From Chlamydiales bacterium (GTDB lineage Bacteria; Chlamydiota; Chlamydiia; Chlamydiales; SM23-39): a DNA stretch of 32,000 bases. The stretch's first letter is position 1; every line of letters begins with the position of its first letter. This document shows, piece after piece, positions 24,893 to 29,827 of the stretch. The stretch spans positions 150,001 through 182,000 of the forward strand of contig OZ253438.1 in NCBI GenBank assembly GCA_965261025.1, given 5' to 3'. A program made the position numbers and the translations under genes. The notes under the pieces were generated by a model. It was not told where the DNA came from, searched no databases, and was given only the letters and a program-made list of their open reading frames with translations.

Positions 24893-25945
24893 GTGAGTTT
24901 TATTGGGTCTTTTCGCTTATCGACAGCTTGTGTCTTTCATAATTTTCGTGGTTTTTCTTCTGGGGTTACAGGGGAATCTAGATTAGATGTCATTCCGTTT
25001 TTTCAAGGAAGTATGAATCCCTACCAGAAAATGGAACCTTTTCTTAGACATGCCGCCTTACATTCAGACAAACTTTCATTAGATGTAAGAGCTCAGCTGT
25101 ATGATTTTAAACAAAAGGGCAATAAGGAAGGGTATCTTCTTTTTCGAGGTTTTCCTGTTGATCCGGGCTTGATTGGGACGCCAGAGAATGTTAGTGATGT
25201 TCCTTGGAAAAAAAAGACTTTTCATAGCGAGTTTTGGCTTTCTTGTTTAGCGAGCTATCTGGGAGAGCCTTTTGGTTATTCACAGGAAAATATGGGGGCT
25301 TTGATTCATAATGTAAGACCTTCTAGAGAAAATGCTCAAAAACTGAGCTCTGGAAGTTCTAAGCAGCCTTTGGGGCTTCATTCAGAAAATGCGTTCCACC
25401 CTTTTGATCCTGACTATCTCATTCTCTATTGTCTTAGACAAGATCAAGATAAAAAGGCGGAGACAACTATAGCAAGTTTTCGAAGAGCGAGGAATTATAT
25501 CCCAAGAGGTTTGGAAAAGGTTCTTAGAGAGCCTCTTTTTCAGACTGGGGTTGACTTTTCTTTTGGAAACATTGATCAAGAAAAAGGAAATGGTAGGATT
25601 ATACCGATTTTGTATGGGGATGAGGAAGATCCTCTCATTACTTTTGATCCGGATTATATGGAAGGATTAACAAAAGAGGCCCGAGAGGCTATGGAAGTGC
25701 TTGAAGCAGCTTTAAAGAAGGTAGAAAAGGGAGTTTTGCTGGAGTCAGGAGATGTCCTTATTGTAGATAACCGAAGGGCTTTACACGGGAGAAAGGAGTT
25801 TTTTGCTAAATTTGATGGGCAAGATCGCTGGCTTCAAAGGATGTTAGTTTCTCGAAATTTACAGGGAGCTGAGGTCATGTTTAGTGAACAGGGAAGGATT
25901 ATCTCTCACTGTTTTGAGAAAGCAATTAAGGGGGGGGAGACGTGA
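24893..25945 (+). CDS. Fe(II)/2-oxoglutarate-dependent amino-acid beta-hydroxylase, clavaminate-synthase-like subgroup (VioC/AsnO-type) of the TauD/TfdA superfamily
   Basis: Facial triad context GLHSENAFHPFDPDYLILYCLRQD (H-x-E) and GDVLIVDNRRALHGRKEF (distal His plus Arg). The C-terminal FDGQDRWLQRMLVSRNL matches the ..DG.DRWLKR.... ending typical of VioC/AsnO-type enzymes. Likely start is GTG 24893, 7 nt after AGGAGG (24880..24885); the track ORF begins at 24809. Confidence 0.8.
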   Translation: MSFIGSFRLSTACVFHNFRGFSSGVTGESRLDVIPFFQGSMNPYQKMEPFLRHAALHSDKLSLDVRAQLYDFKQKGNKEGYLLFRGFPVDPGLIGTPENVSDVPWKKKTFHSEFWLSCLASYLGEPFGYSQENMGALIHNVRPSRENAQKLSSGSSKQPLGLHSENAFHPFDPDYLILYCLRQDQDKKAETTIASFRRARNYIPRGLEKVLREPLFQTGVDFSFGNIDQEKGNGRIIPILYGDEEDPLITFDPDYMEGLTKEAREAMEVLEAALKKVEKGVLLESGDVLIVDNRRALHGRKEFFAKFDGQDRWLQRMLVSRNLQGAEVMFSEQGRIISHCFEKAIKGGET

Positions 25946-26745
25946 ATGATCCTTCGCCGACTACTCTTTCACAAAGTTTCTTAACAGGTGCAGTTGTTGG
26001 CTTTACCGAAGTTTTTTTGACCCATCCTTGTTGGACTGCAAAAACAAGACAACAGTGTGGTCTTCCTTTTACTCTTAATCCAAGGGTCTTGTGGAGAGGG
26101 GCTATTCCTGAAGCAGCAGCAATGATTCCTATTGATATCATACAGATGGCGTTAAGTACGGCTATTAATGAACGTTTTCTTCATAATCGGGGTGATACTT
26201 CTATTTCTAAGAGAGCTTTGGCTGGTTTTGCAGGAGGGGCTGTCGGTGGCTTGGGAATTAGTGTAGTAGAAGCTGTAATGACTCACCAGCAATTGGATAG
26301 AGTTCCCCGGAATTTTTTTTCTACCGCATATAAGATGTTTCGTGTAGCGGGGGCTTCTTCAGTTTTTACAGGGACCTTAGAAGCTTCCTTGCGGAATGGT
26401 ATTTATAATACGGGCTTTTTTGCAGCGGCTCCTCTATTGAATCGAAGAATTGAGCCGAGCTTATCTAATCCCGTTTTTTCCGTTCTTGTAAGTGGAGCTG
26501 TGGCAGGTGGTGTTGTCTCAGTCCTATCCCATCCTCTGGATGCCATAAAAACTAGAAGGCAAAAAGAAGGAGCTATAGCTGGAATTAGGAAAACAGCAGT
26601 CTCTATGTATAGGGAGGGGGGAGTAAATCGATTTTTTGTAGGATTAGGATTTAGAAGTGCTCGGGTTATTCTGGGGATGATGGGGACTACTTTTGTGTAC
26701 GAGCGTCTTGAAAAGGATAAATTTAGAGTTGAAAGTTCCAAGTAG
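25942..26745 (+). CDS. Mitochondrial carrier family (SLC25-like) protein, 267 aa (carrier 1)
   Basis: Three ~90-aa repeats, each with two hydrophobic helices. The carrier signature P-x-[DE]-x-x-[KR]-x-[KR] is perfect in repeat 3 (SHPLDAIKTRRQ), variant in repeat 1 (THPCWTAKTRQQ) and degenerate in repeat 2 (VVEAVMTHQQ). Gly-rich odd helices (FLTGAVVGF, ALAGFAGGAVGG, VLVSGAVAGG). The GTG start overlaps the hydroxylase TGA (GTGA). Confidence 0.8.
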   Translation: MNDPSPTTLSQSFLTGAVVGFTEVFLTHPCWTAKTRQQCGLPFTLNPRVLWRGAIPEAAAMIPIDIIQMALSTAINERFLHNRGDTSISKRALAGFAGGAVGGLGISVVEAVMTHQQLDRVPRNFFSTAYKMFRVAGASSVFTGTLEASLRNGIYNTGFFAAAPLLNRRIEPSLSNPVFSVLVSGAVAGGVVSVLSHPLDAIKTRRQKEGAIAGIRKTAVSMYREGGVNRFFVGLGFRSARVILGMMGTTFVYERLEKDKFRVESSK

Positions 26746-26802
26746 TCATGGCATTTTGTCTTGGAATTATTTTTATAAATACAAAAAAGGAGGGATTTTA
26801 AT

Positions 26803-28852: not shown

Positions 28853-28880
28853 TTGACATAATGGGGTATTTTCTTATAAG
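28853..28880 (+). promoter_or_regulatory. Candidate sigma70-type promoter for carrier 2 and the PLP enzyme
   Basis: TTGACA (28853..28858), 16-nt spacer, TATAAG (28875..28880). AGGAG at 28908..28912 lies 6 nt before ATG 28919. The element sits in a 275-nt intergenic gap, the only sizeable gap inside the cluster. Confidence 0.4.
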
Positions 28881-28918
28881 ATCTCTGGCTTTTAATCAGT
28901 TTTTAACAGGAGATTTTA

Positions 28919-29827
28919 ATGGCTACGGCTGCATATACTTTGCTTTGTTATAAAGAATTTGGAAGAGGATACGGTCCTGGGCCTAATCCAAGAGGAGGAG
29001 GGGATAAAAAGGATCCATCAAAGAGGACTAAGAATAAGGTTAATTTAACCAATCTGGGGCACTTGGTAAACGGAGTTATAAGTAGCACCTTTACTGTCCC
29101 ATTTATTCAACCTGGCTGGGCCATTAAAACTTATTATATGAATGGACAAAAGGGATTTCCTCCTGTTAGTACCTTTTACAAGGGAATGGTTCCAAATATG
29201 GTTTGTGGAGCTATCCCTGAAGGAGTAGCTTTTGTTGCTGAAGATCTTTTTTCTAAGAAAGTTGGACGCTCTTCGGATGATCTAACTCGCCTTGCCTCTA
29301 GTTTTCTTGCAGGGGTTGTAGCGGCTCCTTCAAGTGCTGGGTTAGAAGGTATTATGATTCGGGCTCAAACTGGAACTCGTTCATCTAGGGAGATTTTGTA
29401 TGATACTTTGAAAAAAAGAGAAATAAGAAGATTTTTTAAAGGGACAGTCCCCACCGGAATAAGGGATGGTTTATTCAATGTAGGAATTTTTGCTTTCAAT
29501 GATATTCTCCAACGAATCTTTCGTGAGAAGCTGAATACCAATTCTACTTTTTGTAGTGGGATTCTTTCTGGGATGATTGTTGGTACCTTGAGTACTCCTT
29601 TTGATGTAATTAAAACGAGAATGCAGGCAGATGATAAGGGAAAGTATAACAGATTTTTGCAAACTTATCACAAAATCGTGAGAGAAGAAGGTGTTAAAGC
29701 TTTAATGTCTGGGGCAGGAACAAGAGCTGCATTGATTGGTCTCTGTATTGCTTTGATGTCTGAAGCAAAAAATCAGGTTCCTCCTTATCTCCCTCCTTAC
29801 ATGCAAGCAAAAGCTGAGAATGAGTAG
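28919..29827 (+). CDS. Mitochondrial carrier family (SLC25-like) protein, 302 aa (carrier 2) with a basic Gly/Pro-rich N-terminal extension
   Basis: Repeat 3 has a perfect signature (STPFDVIKTRMQ), repeat 1 is variant (IQPGWAIKTYY) and repeat 2 is degenerate (GLEGIMIRAQ). These are the same deviations as in carrier 1. The ~50-aa extension is MATAAYTLLCYKEFGRGYGPGPNPRGGGDKKDPSKRTKNK. Confidence 0.8.
   Translation: MATAAYTLLCYKEFGRGYGPGPNPRGGGDKKDPSKRTKNKVNLTNLGHLVNGVISSTFTVPFIQPGWAIKTYYMNGQKGFPPVSTFYKGMVPNMVCGAIPEGVAFVAEDLFSKKVGRSSDDLTRLASSFLAGVVAAPSSAGLEGIMIRAQTGTRSSREILYDTLKKREIRRFFKGTVPTGIRDGLFNVGIFAFNDILQRIFREKLNTNSTFCSGILSGMIVGTLSTPFDVIKTRMQADDKGKYNRFLQTYHKIVREEGVKALMSGAGTRAALIGLCIALMSEAKNQVPPYLPPYMQAKAENE

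Follow-up and report, generated by a model that had tools for sequence, protein, structure and literature searches.

Two proteins of the mitochondrial carrier family (MCF; SLC25) are encoded within a 32,000-nucleotide window of the genome of a Chlamydiales bacterium (assembly GCA_965261025.1, contig OZ253438.1, positions 150,001 to 182,000 of the forward strand); all window coordinates below refer to this whole stretch of analysed DNA. Carrier 1 is encoded at 25942..26745 (+), a frame of 267 amino acids with a GTG start, and carrier 2 at 28919..29827 (+), 302 amino acids with an ATG start, both as delimited beforehand; the two genes are on the same strand with a gap of 2.2 kb. Both are genuine members of the SLC25 family and, as judged by sequence comparison, belong to two old sister subfamilies of a single non-canonical clade, across which one of the three salt bridges of the matrix gate appears to have been jointly replaced by a hydrophobic pair of residues. 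The best explanation we can offer, with a rough probability of 0.4, is that they are amino-acid and oxo-acid carriers serving the amino-acid operons in which they are encoded, and that they act in the inner membrane of the bacterium itself.

Family membership, fold and bacterial host

Both open reading frames (ORFs) scored far above the cut-off of the Pfam Mito_carr model (PF00153; 22.3 bits), carrier 1 with 91.5 bits (E 2.8e-26) over three stretches and carrier 2 with 102.5 bits (E 1e-29), two of its stretches passing alone. Sequence searches of the PDB with both carriers returned only UCP1, UCP2 and ADP/ATP carriers. The AlphaFold2 model of carrier 1 (predicted local distance difference test, pLDDT, 86.7; predicted template-modelling score, pTM, 0.83) has six long and three short helices, and that of carrier 2 (pLDDT 85.1, pTM 0.82) has the helices expected for SLC25. 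Fold comparison with the PDB by Foldseek, done for the carrier 1 model only, gave human UCP1 as the best match (8hbv_A; template-modelling score, TMq, 0.82; E 2.9e-9), followed by ADP/ATP carriers at TMq 0.65–0.71. The tripartite six-helix architecture proposed for both ORFs in an earlier reading made from the sequence only (hereafter the sequence-only reading) was therefore borne out by both of the checks suggested with it, profile scoring and structure prediction.

Shine-Dalgarno sequences precede both carrier genes, and the GC content of these genes equals that of their flanks. Three stop/start overlaps tie genes together, between a hydroxylase gene and carrier 1 (GTGA), between the genes of an AlaX-like protein and a PAP2-family phosphatase (ATGA) and between carrier 2 and a dehydratase gene (TAGTG). 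The same window encodes two-partner secretion genes, a PAS histidine kinase and a pyruvate dehydrogenase (PDH) operon. In a genome scan the E1-beta subunit of this PDH was 70–77% identical to the 80 loci returned from metagenome-assembled genomes (MAGs), the labels of which were mostly Chlamydiae, Parachlamydiales or similar, with a few others. The host of both carriers is a Chlamydiota bacterium. Among GTDB species representatives no E1-beta match exceeded 77%, suggesting a chlamydial lineage that is poorly sampled.

Phylogeny of the carriers

Word-indexed protein searches gave almost only eukaryotic carriers, and the bacterial family surfaced only when phmmer was run exhaustively. With carrier 2 this search produced 5362 matches at E<=1e-3, of which 14 reached E<=1e-30. 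The matches included dozens of relatives of full length (240–330 amino acids) at 31–40% identity, MBN2479724.1 from a Parachlamydiales bacterium being one. The nearest relative of carrier 1 is a protein labelled P0139 (42% identity, 212 bits by local re-scoring). Other bacterial proteins (P0126, P0210 and the first MCF of locus L091) are also closer to carrier 1 than are protist proteins, and the latter, at 30–34% identity, are closer to it than is carrier 2 (27% identity). Carrier 2, for its part, is closer to about 70 other clusters than to carrier 1. Viral carriers, 12–20% identical, are not close relatives, and one cluster member carried a KO-style SLC25A20/29 label. A scan of species-representative genome contigs with one back-translated pattern from the carrier alignment gave no match; a metagenome scan with the generic pattern [TA]PFDx[IV][KR]T[RI][MI] recovered mostly canonical eukaryotic carriers, the useful loci being L091, L092 and L093.

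A neighbour-joining tree of 151 sequences (267 columns, 100 bootstraps) contained a monophyletic non-canonical clade of 106 sequences, separated with a bootstrap value of 97 from all 45 canonical carriers, a sample drawn from outside the characterised ORC and BAC sequences. The clade holds about 95 bacterial-type clusters at 50% identity; most members come from metagenomic contigs, and the taxon is anchored for the window and for P0071 (Parachlamydiales) only. One subclade, A (support 65–77), comprises type 1, a bacterial group X and a protist and algal branch (support 90). Type 1 consists of carrier 1 and six other proteins, with carrier 1 joined to P0139 at a support of 91. The other subclade, B (support 52), is type 2 and contains carrier 2 and about 70 clusters. 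Genes of both types occur together in three independent loci, namely the window, L091 (2.8 kb apart) and L092 (in tandem with a 14-nt overlap), indicating that the pair is old and recurrent and does not stem from local duplication.

The protist and algal branch is nested inside an otherwise bacterial clade. Its members include Euglena mutabilis EP00669_P005554, Bolivina argentea EP01084_P180725, a protein from a Prymnesium MAG and P0047. The last of these (L001:10001-10801) lies on a compact, intron-poor eukaryotic contig beside genes for Nop25, CEP131, Sec6/C2 and Aha1, neighbours which show that the branch is genuinely eukaryotic; a transfer from a bacterium to an alga is possible for this branch. 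Group X is bacterial, the contig of locus L175 carrying UvrA and Tmk-HolB. At L175:8001-10740 the group-X gene is found beside genes for RING-finger and ankyrin-repeat proteins, a neighbourhood with the look of eukaryote-like effectors.

Remodelled matrix gate and degenerate cytoplasmic gate

In both carriers the Px[DE]xx[KR] signature of helices 1, 3 and 5 is incomplete, only repeat 3 being canonical, and all motif strings that the sequence-only reading had quoted are present at the expected positions. In carrier 1, repeat 1 reads HPCWTAKTR (26023..26049 (+), residues 28–36), with Trp31 at the acidic gate position, repeat 2 reads VVEAVMTH (26263..26286 (+), residues 108–115), with Met113 at the basic position and no Pro, and repeat 3 has the canonical PLDAIKTR (26533..26556 (+), residues 198–205). 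The corresponding stretches of carrier 2 are QPGWAIKTY (29108..29134 (+), residues 64–72), again with an aromatic residue at the acidic position, GLEGIMIR (29339..29362 (+), residues 141–148), in which Met146 stands for the base and Pro is absent, and the canonical PFDVIKTR (29597..29620 (+), residues 227–234).

Structures of the ADP/ATP carrier have the acid of helix 1 bonded to the base of helix 3 (E29–R137 in bovine AAC1), so the two departures from the signature concern both partners of a single salt bridge of the matrix gate. At the acidic position of repeat 1 the canonical carriers sampled have D (91%) or E (9%); Trp is present in 7/7 type-1 proteins, type 2 has F (53%), Y (16%) or, as in carrier 2, Trp, and group X and the protist branch have V, L or I. 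The basic position of repeat 2, K (78%) or R (20%) in canonical carriers, is Met in 86–100% of type 1, type 2 and the protist branch and in 55% of group X. A non-acidic residue in repeat 1 is combined with Met in repeat 2 in 89 of the 106 clade members, and the combination of acid and base is found in 44 of the 45 canonical carriers. Given this frequency and the monophyly of the clade, the altered gate is best regarded as shared by descent. As read from the alignment, one of three matrix salt bridges would thus be replaced jointly, across the clade, by a hydrophobic pair of Trp, Phe or an aliphatic residue with Met; two other matrix bonds remain, between the Glu of repeat 2 and the Lys of repeat 3 and between the Asp of repeat 3 and the Lys of repeat 1. 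Bonded partners are known to be replaced together, and partial salt-bridge networks occur in accepted members of the family (PMC7611774), so that an incomplete signature does not exclude membership of SLC25.

The sequence-only reading had treated all deviations as common to the two carriers. This is so for Trp and Met, which are shared by descent; the loss of Pro from repeat 2 was not one shared event. Pro is generally absent from type 2 and is retained in 5/7 type-1 proteins, from which it follows that carrier 1 lost it independently of carrier 2.

In both carriers and throughout the clade, helices 2, 4 and 6 have degenerate forms of the cytoplasmic-gate motif [YF][DE]xx[KR]; on helix 6, for example, all type-1 proteins have Glu at the basic position and 79% of type 2 have Pro. 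A weak network may allow a carrier to switch without bound substrate and hence to act as a uniporter (PMC7611774). Type 2 also shares a conserved stretch C-terminal to helix 6, K-x-x-[IL]-P-x-[YF]-[LF]-P (NQVPPYLPPY in carrier 2, window 29780-29827), that neither canonical carriers nor type 1 have.

Substrate class

The residues at contact point II (helix 4, G+7/G+8) follow a published rule, with G[IVLM] in nucleotide carriers, R[QHNT] in carboxylate carriers and R[DE] in amino-acid carriers (PMC6769469). Carrier 2 has the amino-acid-class motif R182-D183 within IRDG (29459..29470 (+)), and carrier 1 the carboxylate-class motif R151-N152 within SLRNG (26386..26400 (+)). R-[DE] is found in 99–100% of type 2 and the protist branch and in 91% of group X (in type 2, R in 99%, then E or D at 50% each), and by the published rule the clade consequently falls in the amino-acid class. 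R-N was seen in carrier 1 and P0139 only, which are also the only type-1 members preceded by a TauD-family gene (n=2; the upstream context of L092 lies outside the data). As a carboxylate motif R-N also occurs in UCP2 and AtUCP, carriers of Asp/Glu and dicarboxylates (PMC6769469). At contact point III (helix 6, G+7) carrier 1 has R241, carrier 2 L272 and type 2 L, T or F; all clade members have Arg at G+4 of helix 6, one turn below this position. Glutamate carriers, too, are without the Arg of contact point III (PMC6769469). We infer an amino-acid-class substrate for carrier 2 and a carboxylate or oxo-acid one for carrier 1.

Operons in the window

The carriers lie in two apparent transcription units. 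Unit 1 begins with a gene (24893..25945 (+)) for an Fe(II)/2-oxoglutarate-dependent amino-acid 3-hydroxylase of the clavaminate-synthase/VioC type, the likely start of which is the GTG at 24893, downstream of an AGGAGG at 24880. The protein matched Pfam TauD (E 5.7e-19) and the NCBIfam models ClavSyn (224 bits), GntD (223) and VioC (166), all under their equivalog cut-offs, and in the PDB its sequence matches were clavaminate synthase (139 bits), L-lysine 3-hydroxylase (121), L-arginine beta-hydroxylase (4m23; 118) and AsnO (117). Carrier 1 is coupled to this gene by the GTGA overlap and is followed by a gene at 26803..27762 (+) for a protein resembling AlaX and tRNA-synthetase editing domains, with HxxxH and CGGTH motifs and weak matches to tRNA_SAD and AlaXM; a PDB sequence search with this protein found no relative. 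The last gene of the unit (27759..28643 (+)), which overlaps the stop of the AlaX-like gene at ATGA, encodes a membrane phosphatase of the PAP2 family (Pfam PAP2, E 9.7e-17), and a terminator-like hairpin (28562-28590) is located inside its 3' end. A link of this phosphatase to the supply of phospholipid (phosphatidylglycerol or cardiolipin) for the carriers is conceivable.

A gap of 275 bp separates unit 1 from carrier 2, the first gene of unit 2, which has an AGGAG ribosome-binding site 5 nt before its ATG. The best match in the region to a sigma-70-like promoter, TTGACA-18-TAAGAT at 28853..28882 (+), agrees with the consensus at 10/12 positions, a consensus match only. Carrier 2 is followed at 29827..30822 (+), with a start overlapping its stop by 1 nt, by the gene of a pyridoxal-phosphate (PLP)-dependent enzyme of fold type II resembling threonine/serine dehydratases (Pfam PALP, E 1.5e-67; NCBIfam threonine/serine dehydratase, 255 bits, under the cut-off), whose PDB matches were the catabolic threonine dehydratase TdcB (175 bits) and serine racemases (about 148 bits). 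The unit possibly includes the ORF at 30852-31820 as well.

Recurrent gene context

Context was compared over seven kinds of locus, which do not amount to a census, and the theme that recurs is how amino acids are taken up and metabolised, arginine, ornithine and lysine in particular. Locus L171 (2515-8912) repeats the core of the window cluster, with a TauD-family gene, a type-1 MCF (42% identity), an AlaX-like gene (35%) and a PALP enzyme (34%); where the window has the PAP2 gene and carrier 2, it has an insertion encoding a 778-amino-acid fusion of Inositol_P and ATP-grasp domains. The set of hydroxylase, type-1 MCF, AlaX-like protein and PLP dehydratase has thus been kept between two distant genomes (L171 and window 24893-30822), and the pathway that it represents could serve to synthesise or break down a basic amino acid with a beta-hydroxyl group. 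Locus L091 combines a type-1 MCF with a class I/II aminotransferase and ornithine cyclodeaminase and, separately, has in succession a LysE translocator, a B3_4/ankyrin gene, a type-2 MCF and a Na:Ala symporter.

Type-2 genes recur in similar settings. In L088 and L089 a polar-amino-acid ABC importer (SBP_bac_3, permease and ABC ATPase) precedes the MCF gene, with arginase-family and AdoMet_dc genes also nearby in L088. Two related contigs, L090 (8282-10837) and L173 (8293-10840), contain ArgR, an Aa_trans permease and a type-2 MCF in an apparent operon, which suggests arginine-responsive control of the MCF gene; L174 has the same MCF gene, its contig ending just upstream. In L176 (4909-12982) a type-2 MCF is the first gene of an operon that continues with a DAO-family oxidase (4-bp overlap), a class V aminotransferase, a Lys/Orn N-monooxygenase, which is an enzyme type of siderophore synthesis, and two AA_permease genes of the APC type, an arrangement unexpected in an intracellular bacterium.

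Proposed function

We propose that the proteins are functional six-helix solute carriers of the SLC25 type, from a clade that would have radiated in chlamydia-like intracellular bacteria. With one matrix bridge replaced by a Trp/Phe–Met pair and a degenerate cytoplasmic gate, the conformational switch may proceed over a low barrier, making net, uniport-like flux possible in place of strict exchange. Each carrier would share its transcript, and be coupled in translation, with an enzyme, both enzymes belonging to one small pathway: the 3-hydroxylase of Arg/Lys type for carrier 1 and a putative beta-hydroxy-amino-acid dehydratase for carrier 2. Carrier 2 would then transport an amino acid, most probably a basic one, that the pathway consumes or yields, and carrier 1 a 2-oxo-acid or dicarboxylate, for example 2-oxoglutarate/succinate or the oxo-acid product. 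A broader version of this proposal, doubtful as a whole though by no means negligible, is that a eukaryotic carrier was domesticated for the cytoplasmic membrane and diversified into at least two subfamilies wired into ArgR-type, arginine, ornithine and lysine operons, making it the first SLC25 protein native outside a eukaryotic organelle, with one branch maybe passed back to algae and protists.

As to the site of action, we lean tentatively towards the bacterial membrane, a weak commitment that follows from the position of the genes as internal members of metabolic operons, translationally coupled with genes for cytosolic enzymes and regulators. Several points weigh against this proposal. 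The substrate assignment draws on two residues and on gene neighbourhood, and the correlation of R-N with TauD-family genes on n=2; support for the subclades is modest (52–77) and neighbour joining is a simple distance method. The mean of the six best 19-residue Kyte-Doolittle windows was 0.96–1.35 in eight bacterial clade members, compared with 1.7–2.4 for inner-membrane controls from the same loci and 1.38–1.39 for two members of the protist branch. A crude Hessa minimum over 12–17 residues came to about +0.3 kcal/mol for MCFs of the clade, -2.6 to -5.5 for the controls and +0.6 for eukaryotic carriers. A shift of helix hydrophobicity relative to eukaryotic carriers, towards insertion by the signal recognition particle (SRP), was looked for and not seen. 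A profile of low hydrophobicity lets secreted membrane effectors avoid SRP, and by the same logic the clade proteins would escape it (PMC12981334). The N-terminal extension of carrier 2 (residues 1–45, 28919..29053 (+)) is basic (9 K/R, 3 D/E), Gly/Pro-rich and predicted to be disordered (pLDDT <50 for residues 1–27), and normal MCF topology would need this tail, of 45 residues and net charge +6, to cross the inner membrane. The operons of L088 and L173 already encode an inner-membrane amino-acid importer, which would make a second one redundant. Finally, the one bacterial MCF that has been studied by experiment, LncP, is secreted as an effector (PMC3252375).

Alternative explanations

Much of this would be accommodated if the proteins were translocated, LncP-like effectors that carry amino acids, exported, in chlamydiae most plausibly by type III secretion, and then either brought into host mitochondria along the usual import route of carriers or inserted into another host-derived membrane. 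Amino acids or oxo-acids would be leaked to the host cytosol and then taken up and processed by the co-encoded permeases and enzymes in a two-membrane relay, which would explain the adjacency to bacterial amino-acid importers without redundancy. The precedent is LncP, which reaches host mitochondria via Dot/Icm (PMC3252375), and the helix hydrophobicity, far below that of the co-encoded inner-membrane proteins, matches that of eukaryotic carriers. Weak gates suit leak or uniport, and a group-X member has effector-like RING and ankyrin neighbours. The nearest relatives of carrier 2 (P0065, P0067 and P0068) likewise have a disordered, basic N-terminal extension and share with it a short start motif, M-[AS]-[ST]-A-A-x-x-L, followed by a polar linker, and its disordered N-terminus appears compatible with secretion, as had been suggested, but is not diagnostic of it; many members of the clade have no N-terminal extension at all. 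Location inside operons of coupled cytosolic-enzyme genes would also be unusual for effectors. Low hydrophobicity, moreover, is simply inherited from carrier architecture as well and is not to be weighed too heavily: some carriers integrate functionally into the membranes of E. coli and L. lactis. We regard a host membrane as a serious contender, with a probability short of even, and continue to prefer, provisionally, the inner membrane of the bacterium.

The remaining alternatives have far less in their favour. LncP-like nucleotide carriers, draining ATP or other nucleotides from host mitochondria, would be in keeping with the superfamily shared with LncP and with an intracellular bacterial lifestyle, but the nucleotide-class motif G-[IVLM] is not found at contact point II, R-D and R-N taking its place in carriers 2 and 1, and no nucleotide-metabolism genes were present in any context seen; this reading was rejected on contact point II and is very unlikely. 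The sequence-only reading had the carriers acquired horizontally and then duplicated. The first part stands, both being true MCF proteins in a bacterium, and because the superfamily is eukaryotic an ultimately horizontal origin is the natural reading. The second does not, the carriers not being each other's closest relatives. A recent local duplication of one acquired carrier, its gate changed after transfer, might have been expected from genes so close together on one strand with the same pattern of deviations; yet they share only 27% identity, each has many closer relatives elsewhere and they fall in different subclades, the pairing of the two types in two other loci means that their split long predates this genome, and the gate pattern is already found in the protist branch. 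Recent tandem duplication was rejected on phylogeny and we consider it even less probable. Eukaryotic contamination, mis-assembly or decaying, functionless pseudogenes, to which the eukaryotic nearest named relatives in word-indexed searches might point, deserve practically no credence and were likewise rejected, in view of the Shine-Dalgarno sequences, the overlaps with bacterial genes, the flank-like GC content, the intact frames and confident AlphaFold2 models, the transport-critical residues kept across the clade and the recurrence of the same genes on several independent bacterial contigs.

Comparison with known carriers

Bacterial MCF proteins as such are already known, only those of Legionella having been studied. 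LncP (Lpg2905) and other Legionella MCFs resemble the present proteins in being SLC25-fold carriers of ultimately eukaryotic origin in an intracellular bacterium. LncP, compared here by description only, comes from a different phylum with different secretion machinery (in Legionella Dot/Icm, with a C-terminal signal) and is a nucleotide carrier, whereas contact point II reads R-D and R-N in the window carriers, whose genes lie in amino-acid operons and whose clade is large, old and marked by an altered gate. Legionella records were not among the named matches of the general protein searches.

The basic amino-acid carriers ORC1, SLC25A29 and BAC have the substrate class suggested here by gene context, and SLC25A29 shows high uniport rates. 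More generally, eukaryotic amino-acid carriers (ORC1/SLC25A15, SLC25A29, BAC, AGC, GC and SLC25A38) share R-[DE] at contact point II (PMC6769469) and the six-helix fold. Unlike these, the clade, which stands apart from the canonical carriers sampled, has aromatic residues and Met for one matrix bridge, a degenerate cytoplasmic gate and bacterial operons, and type 2 lacks the usual Arg of contact point III, its invariant Arg being placed one turn below. Among named proteins, the closest to carrier 1 are orphan protist and algal carriers, which share the gate pattern QPxLYxKN / PMELVMIQQQ / HPLDxxKTCMQ and have R-E at contact point II; unlike carrier 1, these uncharacterised proteins have an aliphatic instead of an aromatic gate residue, and their genes are eukaryotic.

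The phenomenon has been recorded in passing. MCF proteins (PF00153) have been mentioned in 'a few Chlamydiales' (PMC5621508) and in Neorickettsia sennetsu (PMC3252375), MCF transporters of unspecified substrate were listed among the presumed importers of Babela massiliensis (PMC4378268), and Pfam holds PF00153 entries from Chlamydiales and Rickettsiales. None of these is characterised, and in contrast to the present analysis the reports describe no subfamily structure, gate remodelling, contact-point class or operon context. Our literature search found no dedicated description of chlamydial MCFs, and apparently no account exists of how large the clade is, of the two subfamilies that occur together in it, of the joint replacement in the gate, of the binding site of amino-acid class or of the operon context.

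To our knowledge, it is still largely unexplained how obligate intracellular bacteria bring in amino acids through as many as three membranes, and we know of no transporter that carries metabolites in either the chlamydial inclusion or hijacked mitochondria. Action in the bacterial membrane would overturn the view of SLC25 as confined to eukaryotic organelles and would provide an easily expressed, naturally bacterial model of the family; export would make the proteins the first solute carriers among chlamydial effectors and widen the LncP paradigm to include amino acids. There is a credible chance of a native SLC25 carrier of a bacterial membrane and of a possible transfer between bacteria and algae. 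The naturally remodelled gate offers a ready-made test of models that link network strength to exchange or uniport, and the operon partners give concrete substrate candidates, which is rare for orphan carriers.

Other features of the window

An Rfam search of the window found no RNA family. Five sizeable ORFs, at 64-1980 (-), 20148-23174 (-), 23549-24181 (+), 24327-24881 (+) and 30852-31820 (+), have no Pfam match; three of them also have no NCBIfam match, and one is 1008 amino acids long. L171 has no counterpart of the three Pfam-less ORFs flanking the cluster of carrier genes. A second PAP2-family gene at 10501-11331 (-) encodes a paralog 36% identical (E 1e-34) to the protein of 27759-28643 (+). 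The two-partner secretion pair consists of a 1631-amino-acid exoprotein with a TPS domain and DUF5650 repeats (2137-7032 (+)) and its ShlB/FhaC-type transporter (8753-10480 (+)), with the gene for the PAS histidine kinase (7572-8669 (-)) located between them.

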